64,000 bases of DNA from an uncultured bacterium (GCA_938002255.1 CALLAL010000003.1:65639-129638), one strand, 5' to 3'. Shown: positions 1,981-54,881, numbered from the stretch's first letter. The notes: generated from the letters alone by a model not told the origin. Made by a program: numbers and translations.

Positions 1981-2208
1981 CCCCCTCGGGTTAGAGTGAG
2001 TCTTCCTCCATTTTTTGATCCTTTCCTCAATCTCTACCCATCCACTTTCTGTTCGATGTACCCTCCAATCATAAGTCTCATAGAATTCATGCAAAGGGTT
2101 GACAAAGCAAGGGTTCTTCCTTTATATGGGATAAGATTCCATTGCTGATCAACCCGAGACGTTCGGTACCAAGGTGATGGAAAGAATTATCAAACGGGAG
2201 GAAAAAAT

Positions 2209-3327: not shown

Positions 3328-6096
3328 ATGGAACAGATTTCAATCGCACTAAAGATCAACGGCAGAATGGAACATCTTGAAATCCCTCCTCAGCGAACCC
3401 TTCTGGAGGTCATCCGAGAAGACCTGCAGCTCACAGGAACCAAATCTGGGTGTGAAGATGGAACCTGTGGCGCCTGTACAGTCTTGCTCGATGGTATTCC
3501 GGTCCGTTCCTGTCTGATCCTTGCTGCAGAAGTCCAGGGACGGGAAATCACCACAATCGAGGGATTGTCAGATGGCGAAAAACTCCATCCCGTGCAAGAA
3601 GCCTTTGTAAAAATGGGAGGAACACAATGTGGATTTTGCACCCCGGGAATGATCTTAACGACCAAAGCGTTACTGGATCAGAATCCTACCCCTACAGAAC
3701 AGGAGATTCGCAAGGCAATCTCTGGAAACCTCTGCCGGTGTACAGGTTATACGAAAATCATTGAATCCGTGCAATCCATTTCAGGTCAGGAATCATCCTT
3801 AAAGGGAAAGGAAAACGTTTTTACCGACTATTCGGTCGTTGGGAAAAGGGTTCCTCGAATTGATTCTGTTCCCAAAGTGAAGGGAGATGCAAAATACTCT
3901 GCAGATCTTTTTCTACCAGGCATGCTTTATGCCAAAGCACTTCGAAGCCCTTATGCCCATGCGAAGATACTCCACATTGATACCAGTAGAGCTGAGAAGC
4001 TTCCTGGAGTAAGGGCGGTCATCACCGGTCACCATGCCATTCCCTACCGATGGGGAGTTTTTGCTTACACCCGGGATATGCAGTTTCTTCCTACAGATAA
4101 AGCCCGATTCGTCGGCCAAGAAATTGCTGCGGTGGCAGCGATTGATGAAGATATTGCGCGGGAAGCGATTGAACTGATCAAAGTAGATTGGGAACCCCTC
4201 CCCTATGTGCTTGATCCCGAAAAGGCATTGCTTGAAGGGGCTCCACTCATTCATGAGGATAAACCCGGAAATATAAGTGTCAGAATCTATGTGAACGAAG
4301 GAGAAGTCGAGCGGGCCCTTTCGGAATCCTTTCTCGTGGAAGAAGGTCGTTTCTCCTCTCCAGAGGAGAATTACTGCCAATTAGAGAGCTATGCTGTGTT
4401 AGCCAATTTCGATAGTACGGGCTTGGACATCTGGTGTCCCAATGCAGGACCTCATATGAAAGCCCGACCTCTCAGCAATGCTTTAGGCATTCCAACCTCA
4501 GACGTACGCGTCCGAAAGGTGACCGTAGGAGGTCATTTTGGAGGCAGGTCTGAAATTTCTCCCGCCGATTTTATGGCAGCCCTCCTTTCGAAAAAGGCTC
4601 GTCGTCCTGTCAAATTGGTCTATACGCGAGAAGAAAATTTCAACTGCGTGCGACAGGTCCATGGAAGCATCACAGAGTGTAAGGTTGGGGTGAACGCTGA
4701 GGGTCAATTAACCGCCATCGATATGAAGGTCATTATGGATGGTGGGGCCTATGCGAGTACCGGACCGATTGCTGCGTCTGTGGCTTATATCATGATCGAA
4801 GAAACCTATAAATTTTCCCATTTTCGTTATGAAGCCATACGAGCTTATACGAATAAACCACCCCGGGGCATGTATCCACACCACCCTCGAACAACCTATG
4901 CAGCACTGGAGTTACTCCTTGACCGGATCTCTGAAAAAATGGGAATGGACCCTCTTGAATTTAGAATCAAGAATGCTGTCCATGAAGGCTATGTGACTCC
5001 AACAAGGTCGATCATCACCTCTTGTGGAGAAGTGGAAACCATGAAATTGGCTGCCGAAAGGGCAGGCTGGAAAGAGAAACGAGGCCATCTTCCCCCTTAT
5101 CGCGGCATCGGTATGGGTTGTGGGGCTATGATTAGTGGGTTTCCCATGGGCATCCGAGGTGGATCAGCCGCCTTTGTCCGCTTCAACGAAGATGGAGATG
5201 TTGTTGTCATCTCCGGAGTGATGGACAATGGCCAGGGGAATGACAGCATGGTGGCTCAAATTGCTGCAGAGGAACTTGGCATCTCAATCGATCGAGTCAA
5301 AGTGATCACAGGCGATACAAGCGTCACGCCCTCTGATCAGGGAGCTTACTCTCAAGCCTCCACCCTCATCTCAGGGGGTGCCGTCAAAGCTGCAGCTGCC
5401 GATGCTAAAGAACAACTTTTAGAAGTAGCCGCTCAGATGTTGGAAGTCAGCAAAGCAGACTTGATCGCACGTGAGGGTCGTATCTTTGTGAAGGGAGAAC
5501 CGGATCGCTCGGTCGATATTTCAAAGGTCGCTAGAACCGCCTTATCCCGGAATCGAGCCATTTTGGGCCGTGGAGATCGATGGCCTGAGGCCGATCCTAA
5601 AAGGGAATGGATCAAAAACCCCAGGGGACAGGTGGCTTCAGCCTACTCTTTCGGAACGGCTGTCGCTGAAGTAGAGGTTGATCCTGAAACAGGGAAGATT
5701 AAACTCCTGAACATGGTGGGAGCCCATGACTGTGGGTACCCGATCAACCCGCTCGCCGTGGAACAGCAGATCCAGCGCTCAGCCATGGAGGCAGGTCCTC
5801 AGGGAGTCCTCATGGAAAGGCATCTCTGGACAGAAAAAGGGCAGAACCTCAATGCCAATTTTTCTGATTATTGGTTTCCGCTGGCTACCGATGTGCCCAA
5901 CATCGAGCCAATCATCGTCAGCTCCAACGATCCTTTTGGGCCTTTCGGCGCTAAAGAAGGGGGGCTTTCTATATCTGTGGCAATGATTGGAGCCGTGGCG
6001 AATGCAATTCAAAACGCGATTGGCATCACGCCTAAAGATTTTCCCGTAACGCCAGAGGTGGTCCTGAAGTTATTGGAGGAAAAGAAATCCCGTTAA
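3328..6096 (+). CDS. Fused [2Fe-2S] small subunit plus molybdopterin-binding large subunit of a xanthine dehydrogenase family enzyme (HcrC-HcrA-like fusion)
   Basis: The N-terminus has the CEDGTCGACTV and QCGFCTPGM 2Fe-2S motifs. About 170 aa later comes aldehyde-oxidase/xanthine-dehydrogenase large-subunit similarity over about 750 aa. It is a single uninterrupted 922-aa ORF. Confidence 0.8.
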   Translation: MEQISIALKINGRMEHLEIPPQRTLLEVIREDLQLTGTKSGCEDGTCGACTVLLDGIPVRSCLILAAEVQGREITTIEGLSDGEKLHPVQEAFVKMGGTQCGFCTPGMILTTKALLDQNPTPTEQEIRKAISGNLCRCTGYTKIIESVQSISGQESSLKGKENVFTDYSVVGKRVPRIDSVPKVKGDAKYSADLFLPGMLYAKALRSPYAHAKILHIDTSRAEKLPGVRAVITGHHAIPYRWGVFAYTRDMQFLPTDKARFVGQEIAAVAAIDEDIAREAIELIKVDWEPLPYVLDPEKALLEGAPLIHEDKPGNISVRIYVNEGEVERALSESFLVEEGRFSSPEENYCQLESYAVLANFDSTGLDIWCPNAGPHMKARPLSNALGIPTSDVRVRKVTVGGHFGGRSEISPADFMAALLSKKARRPVKLVYTREENFNCVRQVHGSITECKVGVNAEGQLTAIDMKVIMDGGAYASTGPIAASVAYIMIEETYKFSHFRYEAIRAYTNKPPRGMYPHHPRTTYAALELLLDRISEKMGMDPLEFRIKNAVHEGYVTPTRSIITSCGEVETMKLAAERAGWKEKRGHLPPYRGIGMGCGAMISGFPMGIRGGSAAFVRFNEDGDVVVISGVMDNGQGNDSMVAQIAAEELGISIDRVKVITGDTSVTPSDQGAYSQASTLISGGAVKAAAADAKEQLLEVAAQMLEVSKADLIAREGRIFVKGEPDRSVDISKVARTALSRNRAILGRGDRWPEADPKREWIKNPRGQVASAYSFGTAVAEVEVDPETGKIKLLNMVGAHDCGYPINPLAVEQQIQRSAMEAGPQGVLMERHLWTEKGQNLNANFSDYWFPLATDVPNIEPIIVSSNDPFGPFGAKEGGLSISVAMIGAVANAIQNAIGITPKDFPVTPEVVLKLLEEKKSR

Positions 6097-6125
6097 ATCA
6101 GAAATGATAAAGGAGGAAGGAGAGC

Positions 6126-7268
6126 ATGAAGGTACTTGTACTGGGTGGAACAGGAAGTATGGGTCAGGGTGTGGCCCGGGACCTGATCAAACAAGAACCG
6201 ATTCAGAAAGTGATCCTCGGAGATATCAATACCGATCCCAATCGTGTCCAAGAGAAGTTACGGTCCAGCCCAAAGGTGTCCCTAACAAAAATAGATGTCA
6301 ATGATCACTCGGGTTTGGTCAAAACCATTCGGGAGGCCGATGTGGTGATCAACTGCGCAGGGCCATTTTACAAGACCGCAGTAGCCGTGGCCCGGGCAGC
6401 CGTAGAAGCCAAAGTCAATTATATCGATATCTGCGACGACTATGAGGCAACGGAGATTCTCTTTGCGTCCGATATCGATGCTGCGGCACGAGCCGCAGGG
6501 ATTACGGTCCTGACAGGAATGGGATCCGATCCCGGAACAAATAATGTCATCGTTCGATGGTATGCCGACCAACTCGATCGGGTGGATGAAATCGCTCTGT
6601 TCTGGGTCGTCAGTATTGCCGAACTTTCAGGGGCAGCCTGGGATCATGGGCTTCATATGACGATTGGAAAAATTCCACAGTATCTCGATGGTAAATTAGA
6701 ATACGTCGAAGGGGGAACGGGTGAGGAGATCACAGAGTTCCTCGAACCCCTTGGAGTCTGTAAGGTTCGCTATGTGGGCCATCCCCAACCCCTCACCATC
6801 CCGAAATATATCAAAGGAGTGAAAAAGGTCGTGGTCAAGGGAGTGCTGATCCCCGCATGGGTGGATGAACTGATTCAACAGCAGAGAGAAACAGGTTTTC
6901 TCGGAGAGGAACCGATTGAAGTGAGGGGAGTGAAGGTTAAGCCCTATGATCTCACCCTTCGGCTCTGGGAGACCATTCCCCAAAATAGAGACAAAGGACC
7001 TCAGTCTTCCGGCCTAAAAGTGATTGTAAAAGGAGAAAAAGACGGGAAACAGATCACCTACACTGCTGACATGGCAGGTCGGATGGCACCCGGTACAGGA
7101 CTTCCGGCTTCCATTGCGGCTCTCATGCTCCAGGCGGGTGAAGTAACGGCAAAAGGAGTCGTTGCTCCAGAAGGCTGCATCCATCCTAAAAAATTTCTTT
7201 CAGAGCTAATTAAAAGGGGAGCCAAAATACACCAGACCGAAACGGTCAAGTCAATCCTTTCGCTTTAG
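6126..7268 (+). CDS. Saccharopine dehydrogenase family NAD(P)-binding oxidoreductase
   Basis: The N-terminus has the Rossmann motif VLVLGGTGSMGQGVARDL. Length is 380 aa, and it is tightly linked to the next gene. Confidence 0.65.
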   Translation: MKVLVLGGTGSMGQGVARDLIKQEPIQKVILGDINTDPNRVQEKLRSSPKVSLTKIDVNDHSGLVKTIREADVVINCAGPFYKTAVAVARAAVEAKVNYIDICDDYEATEILFASDIDAAARAAGITVLTGMGSDPGTNNVIVRWYADQLDRVDEIALFWVVSIAELSGAAWDHGLHMTIGKIPQYLDGKLEYVEGGTGEEITEFLEPLGVCKVRYVGHPQPLTIPKYIKGVKKVVVKGVLIPAWVDELIQQQRETGFLGEEPIEVRGVKVKPYDLTLRLWETIPQNRDKGPQSSGLKVIVKGEKDGKQITYTADMAGRMAPGTGLPASIAALMLQAGEVTAKGVVAPEGCIHPKKFLSELIKRGAKIHQTETVKSILSL

Positions 7269-38553: not shown

Positions 38554-39621
38554 CTATTGTTGAAGAGAATTCTCTGCGTTTTGCTCTTTGCCACTCTGTG
38601 AGATCACTTCATATCCTGCATCGGTGATCGCCTTGACAATCACCTCGTTGGCAACGCCCTTTATATTGTCATACCGAACCTCTCCTTTTTCAAGATCCAC
38701 CTGGACATTCTGGATCCCATCCAACTGATTCAAGGCTTTCGTGACGGCCATGACGCAGTGTTGACAGCTCATCCCCTTCACCGCTAATTTGTTCATTGAA
38801 TCTCCCTTTGATTCTTCTTGGGCCTTAGATCCTTTTTCTTGCCCGCCCTTCTCTTCCTCTGAGGAATCTTTTTCCTTTACCTCAACGACCTCTATCTTCT
38901 CTTTTTCCTGTACCCCCTCAACTGCTGCGTCAATACGAGTCTTTCTTAAGTGCTTCATTAACGCTTCATACCAGATCGGGTGACGTCGTTTAGCATATTC
39001 GACATCTACTTTTCCGGTAAAGATTGATTTTGTCAGTGGGCGATTCACTTTAAAGATTAAGGCGGATAGATGGGCAACCACACCCAGGAGAAAGAAGATG
39101 GTCGCAAAGGTGTGAAGGAGGGTTGCCGCAGTAATCAATGCCGGTGAAAGGAAGACGCCAGGGAGGTTTTTAATCACTTTGATCATTCCGGTAAGGACCA
39201 GAACCAATCCGACCCCGCCCAGATAGACATAAGCAAGACGCTGCTCAGGAAGGTATTTATCTGATTTCGGCTCTTCACCCAACCCAACCATACTGAGAAT
39301 GGTAAGGACCGACGCCTTGAAATCACCCCTTTTCGGCAGAAGTCCCCGATGTCCCAGCCATCCATGATAGAGACCATGAAAAACCATCACCGAAACAAAG
39401 GCCATTCCAGCCAGGTAATGGATCTTTAAGTTGATGAAGAAGTCTCCTGCCCATCCCAGGCCTGGAATCTGGGTCACCATAAATCTTTTATACATCGGGA
39501 GCTCTCCAAAACCCGAAAAGATGAGCACCAATCCAGAGATCGCGAGTACCCAATGCTCAACGAGCTCAATCGGGCTGTGTCGAAGGATCACATTTTCTCT
39601 CTCGATGATTCTCTCTTTCAT
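38554..39621 (-). CDS. Di-heme cytochrome b membrane subunit (FdnI/HyaC-like) fused to a C-terminal heavy-metal-associated (HMA, CopZ-like) domain
   Basis: Four or five TM helices carry conserved His (HWVLAISG, HYLAGMAF..FHGLYHG, HTFATIFF..HLSALIF). An acidic, Lys-rich linker follows. The C-terminus has MNKLAVKGMSCQHCVMAVTKAL, with the HMA metal-binding motif GMxCxxC. Confidence 0.7.
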   Translation of the reverse strand: MKERIIERENVILRHSPIELVEHWVLAISGLVLIFSGFGELPMYKRFMVTQIPGLGWAGDFFINLKIHYLAGMAFVSVMVFHGLYHGWLGHRGLLPKRGDFKASVLTILSMVGLGEEPKSDKYLPEQRLAYVYLGGVGLVLVLTGMIKVIKNLPGVFLSPALITAATLLHTFATIFFLLGVVAHLSALIFKVNRPLTKSIFTGKVDVEYAKRRHPIWYEALMKHLRKTRIDAAVEGVQEKEKIEVVEVKEKDSSEEEKGGQEKGSKAQEESKGDSMNKLAVKGMSCQHCVMAVTKALNQLDGIQNVQVDLEKGEVRYDNIKGVANEVIVKAITDAGYEVISQSGKEQNAENSLQQ

Positions 39622-40613
39622 TCCTTCTCCTCCTCCATCTTTTCTATTCTCCGGTGGTAAACTGCAAGTCCAACGGCCGCCAAGCCGCTGATAAGTGGGG
39701 CAATGAGAAAGCCTTTAGCCCAACTGTTGACGGCACGTAGCGGATTGAGCACTTTGCTCATTGGGAGGCTTGATTTCGCCTCTTTCAATTTAGAGTCGAT
39801 CCTCTCAAAAGGAACCTTACTCACATAGAAAGTGGCGGTCCCCCCGTTTTCGTTTTCTCCGTAAATGAATCCTTTGATCTCTTTTGCTCTTTCATGGGCG
39901 ATCTTGACAAGATCATCCCGTTTCCCGAAATGGAGAGGTTTTTTGTCTCCCAGCCTTTTATCACAAGCCTCTACGCAAGCCGGAATCATGCCATTCTTCA
40001 GGCGATCATGGCAGAGATCACATTTATACATCACTCCTCCCCCCGCTGGCATCGGTTGTAATTTGAGATAAAGCCCTACCCCGCTCTGTCTCTGAGGGAT
40101 ATGCCAGGGACACACAGCCTTGCACTTCGCCCCTCCCATACAGAGGTTATGATTGATCACGACAGAGCCGTCTGAGTACTTATTGAGAGCCCCAAAGGGA
40201 CAGAGATTGGCACAGGGGGGATTGTCACAGTGCATACAGCGACGGGGAATAAAGATCTCCTCTCCCTCTACCTCCACTTTCTGAACGGTGGTCCAGTTAT
40301 AAGGGGTAAGTTGATTGGTCACCTCTCGCTTCTTCGACCAGTCATCGAAGGTCTTTTGAGGCCAGAGATTTTTGATTGGCTCTCTGGGTTCTGGAAATTT
40401 CTTCACATTTTCTTTTCGGCAAGCCTCCACACATTTCGGGATGGGCTCGTTTTTACAGCCATCACATCTGGTCAGGTCAATCAGGGTAGCGTAGGTACCC
40501 GCTTTGGCAGAAGCCGTCCCTGTCACCCCTACAGTGCAGGCGGCACCCAAGGCCGTCACCATTGCCCCCTTCTTCAAAAAATTTCTTCGAGTCAGCCTGT
40601 GATCTTTCTCCAT
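39618..40613 (-). CDS. Tat-exported 4x[4Fe-4S] ferredoxin subunit (FdnH/HybA-like) with a C-terminal membrane anchor
   Basis: A twin-arginine signal (RLTRRNFLKKGAMVTALGAA) is present. There are four Cys clusters (CDGC..C..C, CMHCDNPPCANLCP, CMGGAKCKAVCP, CDLCHDR..CVEAC). The tail has one TM helix. Confidence 0.75.
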   Translation of the reverse strand: MEKDHRLTRRNFLKKGAMVTALGAACTVGVTGTASAKAGTYATLIDLTRCDGCKNEPIPKCVEACRKENVKKFPEPREPIKNLWPQKTFDDWSKKREVTNQLTPYNWTTVQKVEVEGEEIFIPRRCMHCDNPPCANLCPFGALNKYSDGSVVINHNLCMGGAKCKAVCPWHIPQRQSGVGLYLKLQPMPAGGGVMYKCDLCHDRLKNGMIPACVEACDKRLGDKKPLHFGKRDDLVKIAHERAKEIKGFIYGENENGGTATFYVSKVPFERIDSKLKEAKSSLPMSKVLNPLRAVNSWAKGFLIAPLISGLAAVGLAVYHRRIEKMEEEKE

Positions 40614-40673
40614 ACACCGTTCTCCTTTGGCCTACCCGATGCGCTATTTTCTCAGCGCTTTGGGTTAGGTTGC

Positions 40674-40955
40674 TTACGCCCAATCCATATACTTTGAAAT
40701 GACTTCTCTAAATTCCTGCAAGGATTCCTCTTGTTGCACTCCAGATGCTTCTTTGCTCCTCTTCAAACACTCCTCCAAATGAGTCTGAATAATAATCGTT
40801 CCCACCTTTTTGATGGCCGCTGTGGCTGCCGCATTTTGCATTAAAATGTCCTGACAGGCCGCCCCCTCTTCGACCATTCTCTGAAGCCCCCGTATCTGTC
40901 CCTCAATTCGTCTCAGCCTTGCCAGGATCTCTTTTTTCTGTCTTTCTTTGTTCAT
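40674..40955 (-). CDS. csoR: CsoR/RcnR family metal-sensing transcriptional repressor
   Basis: A 93-aa protein. ARLRRIEGQIRGLQRMVEEGAACQDIL...H...C matches the CsoR fold, including the Cys-His-Cys metal ligands. Confidence 0.7.
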   Translation of the reverse strand: MNKERQKKEILARLRRIEGQIRGLQRMVEEGAACQDILMQNAAATAAIKKVGTIIIQTHLEECLKRSKEASGVQQEESLQEFREVISKYMDWA

Positions 40956-46028: not shown

Positions 46029-46051
46029 AGACTATTGTTGTGTATTTAAAT

Positions 46052-46088
46052 GAAAGCCCCGCTTATTTAGCGGGGCTTTCATGTTGTT
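46052..46088. terminator. Hairpin terminator after rbr (possibly bidirectional)
   Basis: The perfect 11-bp stem GAAAGCCCCGC...GCGGGGCTTTC has a 7-nt loop. The flanking T-richness is modest. Confidence 0.55.
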
Positions 46089-46234
46089 GAAAAACGATTG
46101 TTTTGCCTTTTTGCAATGACTTGGAACCTTCTGGTTCTTGTCCTGTAGGTCTTCTAACCTCTCTTTTCCGTTTCTTTATCACACAAGATTAAGGGGTCCC
46201 CTCCCCTCTTAAGAGAGAACCCAAAAAGACCTTA

Positions 46235-46297
46235 ACAGGACGCCTTGCATTTGCATGTGGTGGCAAACCTTTTTACAACCTTTTTAATCGTCATCAT
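46235..46297 (-). CDS. Unannotated 21-aa micro-ORF MMTIKKVVKRFATTCKCKASC, a candidate RiPP precursor peptide
   Basis: A strong AGGAGGTG SD lies 5 nt before ATGATG. The C-terminus is Cys-rich (CKCKASC). It sits co-directional, about 80 nt downstream of the ATP-grasp-like gene, in the rSAM/SPASM cluster. Confidence 0.3.
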
Positions 46298-46377
46298 CCT
46301 CACCTCCTTTCTAACAAAATCATATCATAAAAAACGACAAAGGCAAGCCTTTTTATTGGTCTGGAAATTCTGACCTT

Positions 46378-47448
46378 TCATGCTTCAAAACAGGCTTTAG
46401 GCAAGTGAGAAAGATCAATGGTTTCATACAGTCTTTCTATTTTGATGGAGAGGTCTTGAAGGAGGTGAAAGGTTGGCACAGGAATCTGGAGAGCCGTCCG
46501 TGCAACGACATCCTCATAAAGGTTGTGCCTTAAATAAGAAGGTTCGCTTCTCTCAAACCAGATTTTGGCTTCCCACGACCTTTGGTTAAAGGTCTCTGTC
46601 TTAAACACCTTTTCTTGAAGCCCATAACCTTCACCCGGGGTGACAAAGGCTAATATGCCGTGGTTCGATATGGACCGTGTCGAAAGGTTGGCATACATGC
46701 AAATAAAACGGCCACCGAAAGCAACCGACCGAATCGAAAAATGAAATCCATCCACGGAGCTTTCAATATATTCCTGTAGCAAATAACTCTGACGCTCTGA
46801 TTTCAGTCTGGAAAACTCTTCAGGATGGTAAATCTTGTGTAACCCCCTGCCTCCTCGTCCAACGCGCCGTTTCAATACAAGCACTGATTTCTTTTCTAAA
46901 AACCCCTCCGCCTCTGTGAGGTCGCTGAGATCGAGGCATCTGGTTTCAGGCACGGGAAAGATGGAATGGAGCAATTGATACTGAACCCATTTGTCTTCAA
47001 GTCTCAACCCAGGATGGAAGGTATTAGGGAAAGGCCCCATGCCATCCATCCATATTTTGAAGGGTTTCAGAGCCTCAATGAAAGGGAGCCCCTGAAGATA
47101 CTCTTGAAAAGACTTGCCATAGACTTCTTGAGAGGTGGTCTCAATGAATTTAAAAATGCCCGAAGGTCTTTTCAGGTAAACTTGGTGGGTCAGTTCATAC
47201 TCCTGGGCTCCTCCGGGCAAACCCACATTGACGTCAATGACGAAAGGAGTCACCCCTTGAGAAATCAGAAAATCGATTCCCAAATACATTGCTTTCCATC
47301 CTGAATAAAAATCCTTCCCCTCACAAGCCCGCGAGGGAGGTCTGCTCTGACATCGCCTGTAGAAGGTCGGGTCACTTTTTTGATTCTCCTTCTCCTGATT
47401 CTTCCCGAAAGACTCCCCTGGCACAACACTGGAAGAGATCCGGCGCAA
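46378..47448 (-). CDS. ATP-grasp-like protein with atypical motif order (candidate peptide ligase)
   Basis: The K-loop VLVLKRRVGRGGRGLHKI and the segments LLQEYIES and FHFSIRSVAFGGRFICMYAN are ATP-grasp-like. An E-x-N-x-x-PG-like segment GIDFLISQGVTPFVIDVNVGLPGG lies N-terminal of them. The start is either 47448 (77-nt overlap with the rSAM gene) or 47289. Confidence 0.5.
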   Translation of the reverse strand: MRRISSSVVPGESFGKNQEKENQKSDPTFYRRCQSRPPSRACEGKDFYSGWKAMYLGIDFLISQGVTPFVIDVNVGLPGGAQEYELTHQVYLKRPSGIFKFIETTSQEVYGKSFQEYLQGLPFIEALKPFKIWMDGMGPFPNTFHPGLRLEDKWVQYQLLHSIFPVPETRCLDLSDLTEAEGFLEKKSVLVLKRRVGRGGRGLHKIYHPEEFSRLKSERQSYLLQEYIESSVDGFHFSIRSVAFGGRFICMYANLSTRSISNHGILAFVTPGEGYGLQEKVFKTETFNQRSWEAKIWFERSEPSYLRHNLYEDVVARTALQIPVPTFHLLQDLSIKIERLYETIDLSHLPKACFEA

Positions 47449-48559
47449 AAGGATCCCCCTGAAGTTTGGCCCGATAACGGCATCCGCCCCTGCATTCCTC
47501 CATCACGGAGCAACTGCATCTCAATTGTTGCAACGGAATTCGCGGGACCCTTTCCCAGCAAGCCCGGAGTCCTTCGTCTATCGATCCCACAGGTTCTTCG
47601 CTGAAGAGACCGCACTTGGCGACCTTCCCATCAGGAAAGATGGCGCAGAGATGGGCGCCACAGGTCTGCTGATGCTCCGCGCTATGGAGTCCTCCACCAA
47701 AGGCATATCTTAAAAGAGGTCCTGCCTCCTTAGGTGAAACCCAGAGGTCTTGATGCTCCTCCAATCTTCCTGCAAGGCAGGGAACATCCACATTCCATTC
47801 TTCGATCTGCTTCGATTGGAGAAAGGAGGCTAGTTCATCAAACTCCGCTAAATTATCTCGATGAATCATCGTCGCGATCGAAACTTGAAGATGTGCCTCC
47901 TGGAGACGGTCAATGGCTCGAATGACTTTCTCAAACGTCCCCTCTCCTCGAAGGGATTCATGACCTTTTCTCATCCCATCGAGACTGAGTTGAACTTCAT
48001 GGACGCGAAGCTTTCGGGCATTGTCTTTGTTGATCAATGTACCGTTCGATAGCAAGACGGAACGAAATGGATAATCCCTCAAAACCTCATTGATCTCCCA
48101 GAAATGGGGATGGAGCAAGGGCTCTCCTCCCGAAAGCAGAAGCCTCAGCCCTTGAATTTCTTCAAATTCTTTTAATACCTTGCCTATCTTTTCAAAAGGC
48201 AAATCCTGACAGAGACCCTCTCCGAGATAGCAGTGGCGACAACAGAGGTTGCATCGGTCAGTAATCTGGAATTCCAGATACCGGAGAGAGGGAACCGGTG
48301 AGGGATGAACACAGATGTCTCTTCGGACTGGAGTGTCTGACATGAAAATGAGATTTTCGGAGAGACAGTATTGAATGAATGATTCGTCTTCTTCCTTTAC
48401 AGAAAGGAGTTCCCCTTGTGAACACTTCAGAAGAAATTGAAATGCCTCTTCCCCCAATTCGTAAAGATGGTCGTTTGCGATGTCATACAGATATGGTTCT
48501 TCAAGCCTCTTGAGCGCACAGTGGGGAGAAACCGAGAAGAACTTATTTGTGTAAGACAT
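47372..48559 (-). CDS. Radical SAM enzyme with C-terminal SPASM domain (peptide-modifying maturase)
   Basis: The CNLCCRHC radical SAM cluster motif is present. The C-terminal SPASM Cys set is CGAHLCAIFPDGKVAKCG...CSCSVMEECRGGC. Confidence 0.8.
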   Translation of the reverse strand: MSYTNKFFSVSPHCALKRLEEPYLYDIANDHLYELGEEAFQFLLKCSQGELLSVKEEDESFIQYCLSENLIFMSDTPVRRDICVHPSPVPSLRYLEFQITDRCNLCCRHCYLGEGLCQDLPFEKIGKVLKEFEEIQGLRLLLSGGEPLLHPHFWEINEVLRDYPFRSVLLSNGTLINKDNARKLRVHEVQLSLDGMRKGHESLRGEGTFEKVIRAIDRLQEAHLQVSIATMIHRDNLAEFDELASFLQSKQIEEWNVDVPCLAGRLEEHQDLWVSPKEAGPLLRYAFGGGLHSAEHQQTCGAHLCAIFPDGKVAKCGLFSEEPVGSIDEGLRACWERVPRIPLQQLRCSCSVMEECRGGCRYRAKLQGDPFAPDLFQCCARGVFREESGEGESKK

Positions 48560-48707
48560 GTTCGATCTCTTCTGGAGTCAGGGTCCCATTTTCGAGCAGG
48601 CTTTTCAAGATCTTGAAAGCACCGCATTCCAGATCTTTCTCAGACTCCTTGTAAAAATCGCAGTGGGAGCAAATCAGATGGATAAGAGATTCTTTGTCCA
48701 GGCTCAT
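48543..48707 (-). CDS. Small PqqD-like protein (candidate RiPP recognition element)
   Basis: ECGAFKILKSLLENGTLTPEEIEHVL resembles the PqqD motif (LNETG..IW.LLDG..T..EI). It is 55-70 aa long and overlaps the rSAM start by 17 nt. Confidence 0.45.
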   Translation of the reverse strand: MSLDKESLIHLICSHCDFYKESEKDLECGAFKILKSLLENGTLTPEEIEHVLHK

Positions 48708-48871
48708 CAACAAACCTCTAAACCTATTTATAATCTTAAAAATCCATTCAATCAAGATGAGCCATTCAACATTCCTTTTGGGTTGAGAGGATGAACTCGT
48801 CTGACTTGTACAGACTATTTACCATCTAAATGAAATTGAATGATTCACCCTATTTCACCTACGACTTGACA

Positions 48872-48890
48872 AATGCAACATTGTTGCATT
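48872..48890. promoter_or_regulatory. Perfect 19-bp palindrome AATGCAACATTGTTGCATT, a candidate Fur-family (Zur) box, abutting a TTGACA -35
   Basis: It is a 9-1-9 palindrome. It sits immediately after TTGACA (48866-48871) and 24 nt upstream of the regulator ATG at 48914. It lies in the divergent region shared with the rSAM cluster. Confidence 0.5.
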
Positions 48891-48913
48891 ATCCTGATTT
48901 TAGGATTGGTCAC

Positions 48914-49339
48914 ATGAGAAATGGCCCGAGTAAGATTTTTCTTAGACTTCAAAAGCAGGGGGTTCGGCTTACCCGGGCTCGGGGGGCTATTATTGATCTT
49001 CTGATCAAGAAGCAAACTTTCCTTTCCTTAGCAGACCTTAAGAAGGGCTTGGAAAGAAAGAAGGTTAGGGCTGACCGGACGACCCTTTACAGGGAAATCC
49101 TCTTTTTAAAACAACAGGGTATGATCTGTGAAATACCGATGGGCGGAGGAAAAAAAGGATACAAGATCTGCGAGGATGGCCATCATCACCATCTCATCTG
49201 CATCCGATGTAATAAGGTTGAAGAGATTGCGTTGAAGAACACCCTGGCCCCTCAGGAGAAAGAAATCGCTCGACTAAGGGGTTTCATGGTTTTGGAACAT
49301 CTGCTCGAATTTTACGGGTTTTGTGAGGATTGCCAATAA
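48914..49339 (+). CDS. Fur family transcriptional regulator (Zur-like by genomic context)
   Basis: It has a winged-helix N-terminus. HHHLICIRCNKVEE and C..C at the C-terminus are Fur-family metal sites. It heads an operon with znuACB. Confidence 0.75.
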   Translation: MRNGPSKIFLRLQKQGVRLTRARGAIIDLLIKKQTFLSLADLKKGLERKKVRADRTTLYREILFLKQQGMICEIPMGGGKKGYKICEDGHHHHLICIRCNKVEEIALKNTLAPQEKEIARLRGFMVLEHLLEFYGFCEDCQ

Positions 49340-49617
49340 TGCGCTGGTCTGAATCTGTTTTCATCAAGTGTGCTTTCATTTTGTTGGGGTTATTTAGCCT
49401 TGGCCTCCTTGTCTCCGTTTTTCATCATCATGAGGATGGATTGTCTCATGAGACCTGCCTCCTCTGTGTTCTGATAGCCCATCAAACGGATATGGCGATT
49501 CAGCATGAAGATCCCGCGTTCCTGCCTAATGCCCATCTTCTTTTTTCATCGAACATAGACCCCACCTTTCTTTCAACTTCCCATCAAACATTCCTGATCC
49601 GAGCTCCTCCTGCATAA
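49339..49617 (+). CDS. Small membrane protein with an HHH/Cys motif, translationally coupled to the Fur-family gene (TAATG overlap)
   Basis: One TM helix is followed by VFHHHEDGLSHETCLLCVLIAHQ. Confidence 0.4.
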   Translation: MRWSESVFIKCAFILLGLFSLGLLVSVFHHHEDGLSHETCLLCVLIAHQTDMAIQHEDPAFLPNAHLLFSSNIDPTFLSTSHQTFLIRAPPA

Positions 49618-49666
49618 TCTTGTTCCTCTCGTAAGCCATACTTTTTCGGATAAGGAGGTGTTTGTT

Positions 49667-50680
49667 ATGCCTACCCGTCAGCTGAACTGGGTTGTTGTAG
49701 TCGTCTCTATTTTGATTGTCATTTTTACATCTGTCTCTTGCCAGAAGAAAGAACAAGAGGCAGTAAAAGGTAAGAAGATCAAAGTCATCACCACCCTCTT
49801 TCCTCTTTACGATTTTGCTAAAAACATAGGTCAGGATAAGGCCGAGGTTGTTCTTTTGTTACCCCCTGGTGTTGAACCCCACAGTTTTGAACCTAAACCC
49901 GAGGATATCGTTCGAATTAACAAAGCTGATCTCTTTGTCTTTACGGGCAAATATATGGAGCCCTGGGCAGAGGATGTTCTGAAAGGATTGGATCACAAGA
50001 ATCTGATCGTGGTCGATTCCTCTCATGGGATCTCCTTGATGGAGGAAAAGGGGAAACATGAACACCCACATGGCCACCAGCACGAACATAAAGAAGTCCA
50101 TGGTCACAAAGAGGACCACACACATCAGCATAAGGAAGGACACCATCATCAGATGGATCCTCATTTCTGGCTCGATTTTGGTCATGCCCAAAAGATGATA
50201 GATCATATCCTTGAGGGTTTCGTTCAAAAAGATCCTTCCCATAAGGAGTTCTATCTCCAAAATGCCGAACGATACAAGTCGAGGTTGAACGAACTTGACC
50301 TAAAATTCAAAGAGGTCCTCTCTCGTTGCAAGAAAAAGGTGTTTGTCCACGCCGGGCACTTCGCCTTCGGGTACCTGGCAAAAAGATACGGCCTGGAATA
50401 TGTTTCTGCCTATGGTTTTTCTCCCGATGCGGAACCCTCTCCACAAAAAATGGTTGAGCTGACAAAGACCCTGAAAAAGCATGGCCTTCAGCATATTTAT
50501 CATGAGGAGTTGATCACCCCAAGGGTAGCAGAAACCCTCGCCAAAGAGACCAAAGCTTCTCTATTGAAGCTTCATGGAGCACATAATCTGACCAAAGACG
50601 AATTGGATAAGGGAATTACTTTTATTTCCCTGATGGAGGAAAACCTCAAGAGCCTGGAGGTTGGGCTCCAATGTCAGTAA
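49667..50680 (+). CDS. znuA: Zinc ABC transporter substrate-binding lipoprotein with His-rich loop
   Basis: A lipobox is present. The His-rich loop reads HEHPHGHQHEHKEVHGHKEDHTHQHKEGHHHQ. The fold is TroA/ZnuA-like. An AAGGAGG SD precedes it. Confidence 0.85.
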   Translation: MPTRQLNWVVVVVSILIVIFTSVSCQKKEQEAVKGKKIKVITTLFPLYDFAKNIGQDKAEVVLLLPPGVEPHSFEPKPEDIVRINKADLFVFTGKYMEPWAEDVLKGLDHKNLIVVDSSHGISLMEEKGKHEHPHGHQHEHKEVHGHKEDHTHQHKEGHHHQMDPHFWLDFGHAQKMIDHILEGFVQKDPSHKEFYLQNAERYKSRLNELDLKFKEVLSRCKKKVFVHAGHFAFGYLAKRYGLEYVSAYGFSPDAEPSPQKMVELTKTLKKHGLQHIYHEELITPRVAETLAKETKASLLKLHGAHNLTKDELDKGITFISLMEENLKSLEVGLQCQ

Positions 50681-51426
50681 GTGTGGTATCCGTCAGAAAT
50701 CTCTCGTTCCGCTATAATTCTGAAGAAGTATTGGCTAACATATCCTTCGAAGTTGGCCAGGGGGATTATGTCGGCCTTGTGGGACCAAATGGTTCCGGCA
50801 AAACGACGCTAATCCGTAACCTGCTCGGACTCCTCAAGCCGTCCGCAGGAGCCGTGTCTCTATTTGGGAAGAGCCTTTTGGATTTCCACGAATGGCATAA
50901 GGTCGGTTATCTTTCCCAGAAATTCATAACTTCCTATCACCACTTTCCGGCAACGGTGAGAGAAGTTGTTTCTATGGGGCTCCTCTCCACCAAGAGATTT
51001 CCAAAGCGGATGGGACCTCCTGATGACAGAGCGGTAGAGAAAGCTCTGGCATGTATGGGAATCCTCGACCTGAAAAACAGACTGATTCATGAGCTCTCCG
51101 GAGGACAGCAGCAGAGGGTTTTCATCGCACGAACCATAGTAAACGAACCCGAGCTTCTGATCCTTGACGAACCGACGGCGGCAGTCGACCCGGAGACAAG
51201 AGAACGATTTTTTAGCCTCCTGAGAGACCTTCATCATCAGAAGCAAACTACCATTATCCTGGTGACCCACGATATCGGAAGTATTGGGAAATACGCTTCC
51301 AAGATGATGTTCCTGGATAAGAGGGCCATCTTTTACGGGTCGTTTGAAGCCTTCTGTCAGTCTGTGGAAATGACGAATCTTTTTGGAAGTCTCTCTCAAC
51401 ATCTCATTTGTCACAGGCACGGGTAA
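50671..51426 (+). CDS. znuC: Zinc ABC transporter ATP-binding protein
   Basis: Walker A GPNGSGKTT, signature LSGGQQQRV and Walker B LILDEP are present. Confidence 0.85.
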   Translation: MSVSVVSVRNLSFRYNSEEVLANISFEVGQGDYVGLVGPNGSGKTTLIRNLLGLLKPSAGAVSLFGKSLLDFHEWHKVGYLSQKFITSYHHFPATVREVVSMGLLSTKRFPKRMGPPDDRAVEKALACMGILDLKNRLIHELSGGQQQRVFIARTIVNEPELLILDEPTAAVDPETRERFFSLLRDLHHQKQTTIILVTHDIGSIGKYASKMMFLDKRAIFYGSFEAFCQSVEMTNLFGSLSQHLICHRHG

Positions 51427-51429
51427 CGT

Positions 51430-52260
51430 ATGGAGATGATCGATTTCTTGGGGTATGGGTTTATCCAAAGGGCATTGATTACCGGTTTTTTTATCGCCCT
51501 CCTCTGTTCTTGTCTCGGATTCTTTCTGGTTCTGAGGCGTCTCTCTCTGATTGGCGATGGTTTGGCCCATGTCACCTTTGGAAGTGTAGCCGTGGCGCTG
51601 TTTTTAAAAACCTTTGCTCTCTATGTATCCATTCCACTGGTTATGATCAGCGCCCTGGGGATCTTAAGGTTGATTGAAAGGGCAAAATTACACGGTGATG
51701 CCGCTATCGGAATCGTCTCGTCGCTTGGGATTGCCATGGGAATCCTCCTAGCGAGCCTGGCCGGAGGATTTAACGTCGATCTCTTCAGTTATCTCTTCGG
51801 AAACATCTTGGCGATTAGCCAGGAGGAGATGGTCTCCTCGATCCTTCTCTCCGGGGTTGCTCTATTACTTGTTGTTTTTTTCTATCATGACCTTTTGTCC
51901 ACCACGTTTGATGAAGAATCGGCAAAGACCGGAGGAATTAAAACCAGGAGAATCAATACGATTCTCTTTCTTTTGACCGCTGTGACTGTGGTCTTAACCA
52001 TGAAAGCTGTAGGCATTTTATTGACCTCTGCACTTCTGATTCTACCGGCAGTCACCTCGTTACAGATTTTAAAAGGTTTCAAAGCATCCCTTCTGATCTC
52101 GTCGCTGATTGGTGTTCTGTCGGTCGTTGGGGGAATCTTTATCTCTTTTGGGTTGAATCTACCAACAGGTGCAACCATCGTTTTGTTTAACTTTTGTATC
52201 TTTGTGGGCATGTTTGTCTATGGGAAGCAAAAAGCAGAAAAAAAGGAGGAGCGACCATGA
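51430..52260 (+). CDS. znuB: Zinc ABC transporter permease
   Basis: A 276-aa polytopic membrane protein of the ZnuB/TroCD family. Confidence 0.85.
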   Translation: MEMIDFLGYGFIQRALITGFFIALLCSCLGFFLVLRRLSLIGDGLAHVTFGSVAVALFLKTFALYVSIPLVMISALGILRLIERAKLHGDAAIGIVSSLGIAMGILLASLAGGFNVDLFSYLFGNILAISQEEMVSSILLSGVALLLVVFFYHDLLSTTFDEESAKTGGIKTRRINTILFLLTAVTVVLTMKAVGILLTSALLILPAVTSLQILKGFKASLLISSLIGVLSVVGGIFISFGLNLPTGATIVLFNFCIFVGMFVYGKQKAEKKEERP

Positions 52261-53810
52261 AGATCTTTATTATGGTTTCACTATTGATGTTTTTGCTCTA
52301 TCAAAATGTTTCTGGCCAAAATCTGGAAGAGCGGATCAAGGTCCTTGAGGAAGCTTTAAGAAAACAGGAACAGACAATCCGGGAACAACAGAAGCTCATT
52401 GAGGAATTAATAGCGGATATGGAGCGACAAAAAACTACGAAGCCGCAAGAGGTAGCCCGGCCAAAAGAAACGGCCCCTCCTGCTGAGGCGGAATCAATGA
52501 AACCGTCCACCCTGGAGAGGGTAAAAGAGGTTCTTCTTCCCAAGGAAGGGGAACCGAAAAAGGACATCCTTTCCTACCAAGTAGGTGGAACGACTCTGCG
52601 CCTGATAGATATTTCCTTTGATGTCCTGGTGGCTACCGGCGCTTCAACCGTGCGCGATGAGCCATTAGGAATTCTCCAAGGAGGAGGGCATGACCCCCGA
52701 AAACGGGGATTTACCGTCCAGAATGTTGAACTTTCATTTATTGGTGCGGTCGATCCTTACTTGAATGCAGAAGCCCATCTTATCTACTTCCTGGATCCGA
52801 TCAGTGGGGAATCAAAATTTGAGTTAGAGGAAGCTTTTTTTACGACCCGAAAATTACCCTTTGGGCTCCTGTTGAAAGGCGGACATTTCTTAACAGAATT
52901 TGGAATAATCAATTCCCAGCATCCCCATCAATGGCAGTGGCAGGATGCCCCACTTATCAATACGCGTCTTTTCGGACCTGACGGGATGAGAGGCCCTGGC
53001 GCGCGATTAGCCTGGCTCACTCCTCTTCCCTGGTTCTCTGAAGTCTATTTGGGAGTACAAAATGCCAATGGTGAGACCATGGCCAGCTTCCTGGCCAATG
53101 ACGAATTTTTTGAAGAACGACCGATCGGTGGTCGACCTTTTGTCGATCGTGATGTTAGAAACCTGAAAGATCTGGTCTATCTCGGCCGCTGGAGCAATTT
53201 CTGGAATCTTACGGATGAGTTAACTATGAAGATGGGACTGTCAGGATTATACGGGCCCAATGCCACCGGACCAAAGGGCCAGACCCTGATCTATGGGGCC
53301 GATCTTAAATTGAAATGGCGCCCCACCCATCATTTTCGGGGCTGGCCATTTCTCCTCTTCGAGTCGGAGATCATGAAGCGTGATTACCGTGCCGATCGTT
53401 TCTTCGATTTAGGACCCGATGGCATCAGCGAAACGCCAGACGACATTTTACTTCCCAAGCAGACCCTGAAGGATTGGGGATTCTATGCCCAGTTACTCTG
53501 GGGATTTCGTCCCCGTTGGGCCACAGGAGTCCGGTTTGAGTATGCAAGTGGGAGTAAGGATAGTGTCGACGTTGATTTCCTATCAGGGACGGTGGATATC
53601 CTCCGGAGAAACCAGGACCCTTTGCGGAACAACCGTTATCGAATCTCTCCTCTGCTAGCCTGGCACCCCACGGAGTTTTCACGGTTTCGACTGCAGTATA
53701 ACTATGATCGATTTTCGAAAAGAATCCAAGACTTTGGAGGCCGGGACGCCCACTCAGTCTGGTTAGGAGTAGAGTTTATGCTCGGAGCCCATGCCGCTCA
53801 TAAGTATTAA
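52257..53810 (+). CDS. Putative outer-membrane channel with N-terminal coiled coil (porin-like), part of the zinc operon
   Basis: A signal peptide is present. The coiled-coil segment reads LEERIKVLEEALRKQEQTIREQQKLIEELIADMERQ. It is followed by a region with alternating aromatic residues that ends ...AHKY. An ATGA overlap links it to znuB. Confidence 0.45.
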   Translation: MKIFIMVSLLMFLLYQNVSGQNLEERIKVLEEALRKQEQTIREQQKLIEELIADMERQKTTKPQEVARPKETAPPAEAESMKPSTLERVKEVLLPKEGEPKKDILSYQVGGTTLRLIDISFDVLVATGASTVRDEPLGILQGGGHDPRKRGFTVQNVELSFIGAVDPYLNAEAHLIYFLDPISGESKFELEEAFFTTRKLPFGLLLKGGHFLTEFGIINSQHPHQWQWQDAPLINTRLFGPDGMRGPGARLAWLTPLPWFSEVYLGVQNANGETMASFLANDEFFEERPIGGRPFVDRDVRNLKDLVYLGRWSNFWNLTDELTMKMGLSGLYGPNATGPKGQTLIYGADLKLKWRPTHHFRGWPFLLFESEIMKRDYRADRFFDLGPDGISETPDDILLPKQTLKDWGFYAQLLWGFRPRWATGVRFEYASGSKDSVDVDFLSGTVDILRRNQDPLRNNRYRISPLLAWHPTEFSRFRLQYNYDRFSKRIQDFGGRDAHSVWLGVEFMLGAHAAHKY

Positions 53811-53828
53811 AAAGAAAGGAGTCATCTT

Positions 53829-54881
53829 ATGCGAAATACATTAACGGGGATTTCCTTGGGTTTTGTCCTTCCATTTCTTCTTTTTTTATTGATGGTTATC
53901 CCTTCCATTGTTCATGCACAGGGGGACCTCAGACCTCTTCGGGTCTGCGCTACGGTTCCTGATCTCGGCGATCTTGTCCGGGAAATCGGAGGTGATCAGG
54001 TTTCGATTACAGTGTTCGCCAAGGGGAGAGAAGATCCGCATTTCATTGAGGCAAAACCCAGCTTCATAAAAGCTCTGAGTCAGGCCGATCTTTTTTTACA
54101 GATTGGGATGGAGCTGGAGATGGGATGGGTTCCGGTCTTACTGCAGAATGCCCGCAATGGACGCGTCCTCCCCGGAGCGACGGGACATCTGGATGCATCC
54201 AGGGTAATTCAACCAATGGAGGTTCCAACGGGAATCGTGGATCGTTCCTTGGGTGATGTACATCCGACAGGGAATCCCCATTATCTTCTGGACCCGCTGA
54301 ACGGACTTCAGGTGGCACGAATGATCACCGACAAGCTAATTGAAATCCGGCCCGAAAAAAAATCTTTCTTCGAAGAAAGGTATCGGGTATTATATAGGAA
54401 GATGGGAAATGCCATGGCAGGGGAGCGACTGGCAGGAAAGTATGAATTTGAGAAACTCGCCCTATTATTTTCTGAAAATCACCTATCAGAATTTCTAAAG
54501 GAACGAAGAGAAGAAAATGTTCTGGGAGGCTGGTTGGGAAGAATGCTTCCTCTGATTGGAATGAAAGCGGTGGCTGACCATAACTTGTGGCCCTATTTTG
54601 CCCGACGATTTGGAATATCAGTTGTAGGTTTTTTGGAACCCAAGCCCGGGATTCCTCCCACTACCAGACATCTTCAGACGATTGTAGAAAAAATGAAGTC
54701 AGAGGGAATCAAATTGATATTAGCTTCACCCTATTTCGATATACGTCATGCCCAATTTGTTTCAAAAAACGCAGGGGCTAAGGTCGTTCCGATGGCCCAT
54801 CAGGTTGATTCCCGGCCAAGCACGAAGAACTACTTGAGTATGATCGACTACAATGTCCGGCAGGTTTCTGAAGCATTTTAG
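53829..54881 (+). CDS. Second metal ABC transporter substrate-binding protein (TroA/ZnuA-like, no His-rich loop)
   Basis: A signal peptide precedes a cluster-9 substrate-binding fold with metal-binding His and Asp positions. Confidence 0.75.
   Translation: MRNTLTGISLGFVLPFLLFLLMVIPSIVHAQGDLRPLRVCATVPDLGDLVREIGGDQVSITVFAKGREDPHFIEAKPSFIKALSQADLFLQIGMELEMGWVPVLLQNARNGRVLPGATGHLDASRVIQPMEVPTGIVDRSLGDVHPTGNPHYLLDPLNGLQVARMITDKLIEIRPEKKSFFEERYRVLYRKMGNAMAGERLAGKYEFEKLALLFSENHLSEFLKERREENVLGGWLGRMLPLIGMKAVADHNLWPYFARRFGISVVGFLEPKPGIPPTTRHLQTIVEKMKSEGIKLILASPYFDIRHAQFVSKNAGAKVVPMAHQVDSRPSTKNYLSMIDYNVRQVSEAF

Follow-up and report, generated by a model that had tools for sequence, protein, structure and literature searches.

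The window (the whole 64,000-nucleotide stretch of DNA that was analysed, from an uncultured bacterium) carries on its minus strand a cassette encoding, in this order, a 54-aa protein, a radical-SAM (rSAM) enzyme, an ATP-grasp ligase and a 20-residue peptide, an order kept in relatives of the L142 and L143/L144 type (handles of this form denote homologous loci). The features of the cassette are as follows.

48543..48707, minus strand: gene for a 54-aa protein with invariant C13, C16 and C28, its stop overlapping the rSAM start
47372..48559, minus strand: gene for a radical-SAM enzyme of 395 aa, with CxxxCxxC, a C-terminal SPASM-like Cys-rich domain and an N-terminal extension of ~90 aa
47317..47338, minus strand: hairpin and T-run in the 82-nt rSAM-to-ATP-grasp spacer, the canonical peptide site
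46378..47289, minus strand: gene for an ATP-grasp ligase of 303 aa, its true start being M54 of the listed 356-aa ORF
46352..46339, minus strand: 5-bp, A/T-rich hairpin AAAGG-CTTG-CCTTT, followed by a T-run at 46334..46329
46319..46346, minus strand: sigma-70-like TTGCCT-16-TG-TATGAT (extended -10), candidate promoter of the peptide gene
46300..46310, minus strand: Shine-Dalgarno sequence AAAGGAGGTGA, 5-7 nt before the conserved ATG
46232..46294, minus strand: peptide gene, MTIKKVVKRFATTCKCKASC (20 aa) plus TAA, the conserved start being the second ATG
46194..46222, minus strand: hairpin with a 12-bp stem and a 5-nt loop (GGGUUCUCUCUU AAGAG GGGAGGGGACCC), 9 nt past the stop codon

Read on the minus strand from 46297 to 46232, the micro-ORF is ATG ATG ACG ATT AAA AAG GTT GTA AAA AGG TTT GCC ACC ACA TGC AAA TGC AAG GCG TCC TGT TAA, preceded by gaAAGGAGGTGAgg, and the frame from the first ATG translates to MMTIKKVVKRFATTCKCKASC. 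An earlier note on this DNA had proposed a 21-residue product here; the location, the minus strand and the strong Shine-Dalgarno sequence behind which the ORF sits are confirmed, as are the three Cys among the last seven residues, whereas the reported four Lys are in fact five, with one Arg, in the 21-mer. The ORF is real and only its length is off: a start at 46297 adds one Met that is not conserved among relatives. The first ATG of the window is AGG in L142, whose ATP-grasp is 84% identical, and all homologues begin at the equivalent of the second ATG; therefore the conserved product is the 20-mer that starts at 46294. The ORF had been described as unannotated, and the public gene calls on the identical contig do skip it. 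None of six peptide variants is present in a collection of 15 billion proteins, and scans of Pfam and NCBIfam give no curated family for the peptide. Three copies of AAGGAGGT in the 64-kb window have an ATG 2-9 nt further on, versus 0.14 in shuffles: one at the znuA start, one at an out-of-frame site within a 551-aa ORF and one at the peptide ORF. A 12-codon ORF with a strong Shine-Dalgarno sequence at 62713 (minus strand) was discounted, since a larger ORF encloses it.

Homologues of the peptide, with the consensus M[TSI]I[KR]K[VI]x[KR][KR]F[SA]xxCKCKASC, were recovered in two ways: 13 loci were found through the neighbouring ATP-grasp or rSAM proteins, independently of any DNA pattern, and all of them carry CKCKASC; and at least 120 metagenome loci (L020-L139) were found with a DNA pattern that fixes Phe10 and the C-terminal CKCKASC-stop only, so that the invariance of CKCKASC in the metagenome set is imposed by the search. 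Ten of 15 genome loci fetched via the ATP-grasp protein encode MTIKKVAK[KR]FSxxCKCKASC, located 5' of ATP-grasp and directly 3' of rSAM. In 116 of the 120 metagenome loci listed, the 5' half left free by the pattern is ATG-[TSI]-I-[KR]-K-[VI]-x-[KR]-[KR], and start and stop are intact in 116 of these 120 and in 13 further loci; of the other four, one runs off its contig and three carry an internal stop or N-terminal damage. The decayed copies are L063 (715..778, with an internal stop, MTIRKVVK*FSEICKCKASC) and L036 and L102, which have damaged N-termini.

Comparison of 103 distinct DNA versions shows how this sequence has drifted. Codons 2-9, which the search pattern does not constrain, have pS 0.72 and pN 0.10; the ATG and residues I3, K5, F10, C14, K15, C16, K17, A18, S19 and C20 are invariant (F10 and CKCKASC being fixed by the pattern), and the Lys, Cys, Ser, Ala and Phe codons switch freely among synonymous forms. 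Ser occupies residue 11 in 102 of the 103 versions, and Ala11 ('FATT') is a trait of the window lineage. Neither the window peptide nor 43 of the 46 peptide variants contain Asp or Glu. Among relatives with the gene order of the window, L142 encodes MTIKKVVKRFATTCKCKASC and differs from the window in the peptide gene by three synonymous changes, no non-synonymous change and a different stop codon; L143/L144, with ATP-grasp 71% identical, encode MTIKKITKKFATTCKCKASC, and the L143 gene differs by five synonymous changes and three conservative replacements, all at known variable positions. The earlier note had made the reality of the ORF depend on conservation of its ATG-to-stop frame in homologous loci and on synonymous rather than nonsynonymous drift; more than 130 loci keep the frame, and change is mainly synonymous (pN/pS 0.14). 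Frame, start, stop and Shine-Dalgarno sequence are thus conserved together with a synonymous excess, as in a coding gene, and the codon comparison shows strong purifying selection on the peptide sequence. Positions 46294..46232 (minus strand) of the window are almost certainly a real peptide gene.

Several elements around the gene bear on its expression. In canonical loci the Shine-Dalgarno sequence is conserved as GAAAGGAGGTGA within the last rSAM codons (LKGGE*; rSAM end ...FQCYARGVLKGGE*), and it is kept in relocated or orphan peptide copies that have no upstream rSAM. The 12-bp hairpin downstream of the stop codon has 92% of its cells paired in 113 distinct homologous sequences, versus 50-75% with shifted partners, and five of its pair columns show 15-20 compensatory double changes each. 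The stem was counted with explicit pairs, since an alignment gap left RNAalifold on the raw MAFFT alignment with only the three innermost stem pairs; an Rfam scan gave no family match at the hairpins. In 65 of 72 canonical loci, the peptide and ATP-grasp are also separated by another hairpin with a T-run. In the window, a GC-rich bidirectional terminator hairpin (gaaagccccgc...gcggggctttc, 46040..46125) is common to the rubrerythrin gene and the peptide unit, and is the sole location of sub-threshold Rfam hits.

The earlier note had assigned separation of the peptide from ATP-grasp to the AAAGG-CTTG-CCTTT hairpin and its T-run. This element is weak and not conserved: the surrounding 39-nt stretch folds at -5.4 kcal/mol in total, a second 5-bp hairpin included; a terminator scan did not call it (below criteria); L142 has lost the stem through CCTTT -> TTTTT; and L143 has no such hairpin. 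It overlaps the sigma-70-like site and looks more like the peptide's own promoter. That site matches the consensus at only 9 of 12 positions, its -10 is retained in L142, and TATACT/TATATT-like boxes are also found at other relocated or orphan peptide copies; the peptide gene of the window lineage probably has its own promoter, of which this is the candidate. That the peptide and the enzymes are expressed at different levels, as the same note had suggested, is plausible by way of the strong Shine-Dalgarno sequence, the covarying hairpin and the terminators of canonical loci, and finds no support in the hairpin on which it had been based.

Comparison of gene orders places the peptide next to another partner than the window would suggest. 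The canonical order is the 54-aa tri-Cys protein, rSAM, the peptide 13 nt on, the 12-bp hairpin, the terminator and ATP-grasp; that of the window is derived and rare. Between rSAM and ATP-grasp, the window, L001 and L002 have the 82-nt spacer with only the hairpin and T-run, the peptide is missing there, and the altered rSAM C-terminus ...REESGEGESKK* is common to all three. In 105 of the 120 metagenome loci listed, rSAM lies directly upstream of the peptide, typically with a gap of 13 nt, and the remainder are mostly contig edges. The linkage of the peptide to the ATP-grasp operon claimed in the earlier note is borne out, ATP-grasp being downstream of the peptide in 68 of ~82 assessable loci among the matches listed; the note missed that the peptide is linked most tightly to the radical-SAM enzyme, not to ATP-grasp. 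Among the matches listed, 12-14 loci have rSAM and the peptide without an adjacent ATP-grasp, two (L050, L119) have the peptide with ATP-grasp only, apart from rSAM, and five (L025, L055, L060, L072, L105) are solitary peptide copies. In the L142/L147 genome, the small protein and rSAM lie ~7 kb from ATP-grasp and the peptide; this rSAM-less pairing indicates that the peptide can stay with either enzyme. Downstream synteny (rubrerythrin, UPF0261, SLT) is common to the window, L142 and L143/L144. The place of rSAM directly 5' of ATP-grasp in L142 is taken by a sigma-54 enhancer-binding protein (999..2909; PrpR_N-PAS-AAA-HTH_8), and one MAG contains two complete cassettes (L005 and L006).

A peptide homologue was also sought 3' of ATP-grasp in relatives, where there are only unrelated sigma-54-type promoters and two small membrane proteins; the homologue lies upstream. 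In L004-L012, the ~300-1500 nt 3' of ATP-grasp consist of an AT-rich spacer and then a sigma-54-type TGGCAT-N5-ATGCA promoter, followed by conserved membrane proteins of 94 aa and 73 aa and an ABC ATPase; the same promoter and membrane-protein arrangement is present in L004, a locus with neither rSAM nor the peptide. The spacer after ATP-grasp in L008-L011 contains inverted repeats (ccccgttagaaat ... atttctaacgggg) like small mobile or REP-like repeats. In L002, an IS-like ORF with a Zn-finger transposase N-terminus (5938..6230) starts 25 nt after the ATP-grasp stop and occupies the position of the window's micro-ORF, and the contig ends before any peptide copy could appear.

A Fur-family gene and znuABC are transcribed away from the cassette of the window, and genes for rubrerythrin, UPF0261 and an SLT transglycosylase towards it. 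Metal-homeostasis genes are dense at 38554..40955 (minus strand) and 48830..54881 (plus strand): they encode a CsoR-like repressor, a 4Fe-4S dicluster protein, a cytochrome b561-HMA fusion, the Fur-family regulator, ZnuA, ZnuC and ZnuB, a 538-aa unknown protein and a second ZnuA. This neighbourhood is common to the window and its closest relative L002 only. A perfect palindrome, TGAATGATTCA, at 48837..48847, in the region from which the Fur-family gene and the small-protein gene diverge, is a candidate Fur/Zur box. Zinc/Zur regulation was rejected as a conserved feature of the cassette because the Fur/znuABC adjacency is found only in the window and L002 and because TGAATGATTCA is not above chance.

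The radical-SAM enzyme matches Pfam PF04055 at 1.4e-21, and its C-terminus matches the SPASM model TIGR04085 at a borderline 26.6 bits (cutoff 27, E 6e-6); C300, C305, C316, C334, C348, C350, C356, C360 and C378 are invariant. Its CxxxCxxC motif and SPASM/twitch-type domain, the SPASM part being borderline, are those of sactipeptide-type maturases. The nearest solved structures by profile are SkfB (5e-17) and PqqE (4e-9, core only). No NCBIfam equivalog is reached: the best (ScmE, NirJ, WgkB, GeoRSP, MftC, ACGX and StsB) are far below their cutoffs, with 74 bits versus a cutoff of 625 for StsB and 82.5 versus 265 for the mycofactocin rSAM, and PqqE is not among the best families. Neither the ~90-aa N-terminal extension nor the small protein has a PqqD/RRE match in Pfam or NCBIfam at E<=10. 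The 54-aa protein belongs to a family of 123 clusters, all 'hypothetical'; it has no Pfam domain, no NCBIfam family and no significant match in a fold search, and its AF2 model consists of three helices (pLDDT 83). A FAD amine-oxidase-like gene (PF01593, ~520 aa), either convergent or co-directional after ATP-grasp, adjoins the cassette in 37 of the 120 loci listed and in L003; it is absent from the window, and decayed fragments of it lie between the peptide and rubrerythrin in L143 (4148..4469).

The start of the ATP-grasp ligase is placed at M54 of the listed ORF because its homologues are all ~303 aa and begin MYLGIDF. Its clade is small, with 69 clusters at 50% identity among 1.84 billion representatives. 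Of the 160 profile positions of Pfam ATP-grasp_3, it matches only the first half (2-91); against NCBIfam (E<=1) there are only RimK_fam, MptN, Ddl_archaea, CofF and PurP-like matches, all far below cutoff; and there is neither a sequence match to PDB chains nor a match to Pfam CP_ATPgrasp. The AF2 model (pLDDT 82.7) finds as its best Foldseek match PDB 3k1t, a putative gamma-glutamylcysteine synthetase (E 9e-5), followed by glutathionylspermidine synthetase and YgiC/YjfC and, lower, eukaryotic glutathione synthetase. The best matches include ligases with a permuted ATP-grasp topology (TM at most 0.43), and the matches named come before most of the PsnB, DcsG, Ddl and RimK chains, at TM-scores of only 0.3-0.43. 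D19-x-N21 lies on an N-terminal beta-hairpin, before the ATP-binding K140 and the Gly loop G144-G147, and moving residues 1-40 to the C-terminus adds a match to the TTL profile at 225-257 and takes its E-value from 0.25 to 0.005. The predicted structure and these motifs lend modest support to an ATP-grasp that appears to be circularly permuted. Distant ATP-grasp relatives (39-63% identity) stand alone, with neither rSAM nor the peptide, and a search for variant peptides near those at 39-51% identity found none; the ligase may therefore have a substrate other than the peptide.

From gene content and conservation, we consider it likely that the peptide is the precursor or substrate of the neighbouring radical-SAM/SPASM-like enzyme in a RiPP-like system. 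Purifying selection on the peptide, its coupling to rSAM in the great majority of loci and the SPASM-type nature of the enzyme argue for this reading; against it stand the lack of a detectable RRE or PqqD domain, the lack of a protease or exporter in the cassette, and the 12-14 loci without an adjacent ATP-grasp. The basic N-terminal half (MTIKKVxKKF) would be the recognition segment, and rSAM, via its SAM cluster and auxiliary clusters, would cross-link or otherwise modify the core F-S/A-x-x-C-K-C-K-A-S-C, the most likely chemistry being, purely by conjecture, the formation of Cys-derived thioether bridges. The 54-aa tri-Cys protein would be an accessory partner, in the position of PqqD-type chaperones. 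The putatively permuted ATP-grasp might then, equally conjecturally, make an ATP-dependent amide at the carboxylate of the C-terminal Cys, which would either close a ring with a Lys or take on an amine or amino acid; if the ligase acts on the peptide it must use the C-terminal carboxylate, because Asp and Glu are missing from 43 of the 46 variants. The hairpin after the peptide, the terminator and the strong Shine-Dalgarno sequence may raise the output of peptide above that of the tailoring enzymes. The cassette has no conserved protease or exporter, and its flanks differ between loci; this lack, together with the near-invariance of the peptide, leaves room for a cofactor-like or scaffold role. 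We put forward only tentatively, and consider rather unlikely as a whole, the more specific proposal that syntrophic Thermodesulfobacteriota make a new cofactor, or a small thiol/metal-active product, from the 20-mer as its ribosomal precursor, by means of a distinct rSAM/SPASM enzyme, the new tri-Cys helper and then a circularly permuted ATP-grasp of a kind so far unrecognised, which would ligate the carboxylate of the C-terminal Cys, with the FAD amine-oxidase-like enzyme in some lineages.

The peptide could also be real without being a substrate, as a small metal- or Fe-S-binding or regulatory partner, metallothionein-like in its CKCKxxC, that serves rSAM and ATP-grasp or metal homeostasis. 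Its C-x-C-x3-C arrangement with Lys between the Cys resembles metal-binding motifs, the window cassette is divergent from the Fur-family gene and znuABC and near the CsoR-like and HMA-domain genes, and the peptide is extremely invariant and has no leader protease or exporter. We nevertheless consider such a role unlikely: the metal-gene neighbourhood is shared with L002 and not with other loci, the constant partner is a radical-SAM/SPASM-type enzyme of the peptide-maturase kind, and a tetrahedral site is not completed by the three thiols of the 20-mer alone.

Distinctly improbable, with no conserved peptidase in the cassette, equivalog models for PqqE and MftC far below cutoff and no FAD gene in the window, is a pathway like those of PQQ, mycofactocin or pearlin, in which the peptide would serve as scaffold or precursor and the end product would be a small molecule or cofactor cut out of it. 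Such a product would nonetheless suit a very short, near-invariant precursor, an rSAM-SPASM enzyme paired with a small partner, a ligase like glutathione and glutathionylspermidine synthetase folds, the lack of an exporter, and a FAD amine-oxidase-like gene that adjoins many of the loci listed (37 of 120) in both orientations.

The roles of the two small products might instead be exchanged, rSAM having its true substrate in the 54-aa tri-Cys protein, with the 20-mer as an accessory or a further product. The protein is small, has three invariant Cys, is translationally coupled to rSAM and belongs to no known family; however, it is predicted to be a folded three-helix protein and is uniformly conserved, its position matches that of PqqD-like or 'LPL' helpers upstream of SPASM enzymes (PMC8939145), and no relocated or orphan copies of it were found, whereas the 20-mer follows either enzyme in split cassettes, all of which makes this exchange very improbable. 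That the ORF is a chance frame or an RNA-level element (a Shine-Dalgarno-like sequence and a hairpin with no peptide function), as its length below that of gene callers, its lack of annotation, its absence from 15 billion predicted proteins and the adjoining conserved RNA hairpin might suggest, is effectively refuted by the codon pattern, with synonymous sites almost saturated and amino acids kept, by the conservation of start and stop in 116 of the 120 metagenome loci listed and 13 others, and by the appearance of decay in the rare copies L036, L063 and L102.

With the peptide as the likely rSAM substrate, the locus represents a widespread four-gene cassette, present at more than 130 loci in wetland, sediment and subsurface MAGs of Thermodesulfobacteriota/Syntrophaceae, the key gene of which was missed by every gene caller. 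The peptide gene turns three 'hypothetical' proteins (rSAM, ATP-grasp and the 54-aa protein) into a testable peptide-modification pathway with a defined and synthetically accessible substrate of only 20 residues, and the absence of acidic residues from this peptide predicts ATP-grasp chemistry unlike that of graspetides. RiPP-type precursors are recoverable by the strength of the Shine-Dalgarno sequence combined with codon analysis across loci. If the cofactor reading were true, a pathway class comparable to PQQ or mycofactocin would have been hidden by a key gene that is too short for gene callers.

A search of a literature library on the peptide motif and on the combination of rSAM with ATP-grasp returned only the description of the Bacteroidetes grasp-with-spasm loci, and no paper there with the motif. 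In these loci (branch 5, Makarova et al. 2022; TIGR04192/04193), a small helper protein precedes the SPASM enzyme (PMC8939145). The present cassette likewise unites an ATP-grasp, a SPASM-type rSAM and a short Cys-containing peptide (cf. PMC8939145), and differs in its ATP-grasp, which has only weak RimK, MptN and CofF matches and looks circularly permuted, in its peptide, which has neither Asp/Glu for side-chain lactone or lactam rings nor a GG leader motif, and in its taxon, Thermodesulfobacteriota rather than Bacteroidetes. The graspetide-maturase models TIGR04184/04185/04187/04192 are not reached by the ATP-grasp (NCBIfam, E<=1), and an ordinary graspetide with omega-ester or omega-amide side-chain rings is ruled out by the lack of Asp and Glu in the window peptide and in 43 of the 46 variants.

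Sactipeptide and ranthipeptide systems (SkfA/SkfB, SCIFF/CteB) share with the present one the auxiliary-cluster Cys motifs of the rSAM, of which SkfB is the best solved-structure relative, and a short Cys-bearing peptide encoded beside the enzyme; like SCIFF, the peptide is highly conserved and not hypervariable. In contrast to those systems, the rSAM here falls short of every equivalog and exception model (StsB 74 bits versus 625), the peptide has only 20 aa with its three Cys at the extreme C-terminus and a thioether that we infer, and the cassette has no protease or ABC exporter. PqqA/PqqD/PqqE and MftA/MftB/MftC resemble it in their near-invariant precursors of ~20-30 aa with C-terminal key residues, a design seen here in the CKCKASC of the 13 pattern-independent loci, and in the pairing of an rSAM-SPASM enzyme with a separate small partner protein. 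They differ in that the PqqE and MftC models are far below cutoff, the small protein has no PqqD similarity, the key residues are Cys and Lys instead of Glu/Tyr or Val/Tyr, and there are no other genes in common.

The ligase is most like GspS, YgiC/YjfC, eukaryotic glutathione synthetase and 3k1t, the best matches of its AF2 model (E 9e-5 to 5e-3), and it carries on an N-terminal beta-hairpin the D/E-x-N motif that is normally C-terminal. Permuted ATP-grasp amide ligases of the GspS/YgiC type join the carboxylate of a thiol-peptide to an amine; the present enzyme differs from this group in TM-scores of only 0.3-0.43, in the lack of a PDB sequence match or CP_ATPgrasp hit, and in forming a small isolated family. 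The locus is accordingly classified as an rSAM-dependent RiPP-like system, new in its unusually short, unannotated precursor and its atypical ligase.
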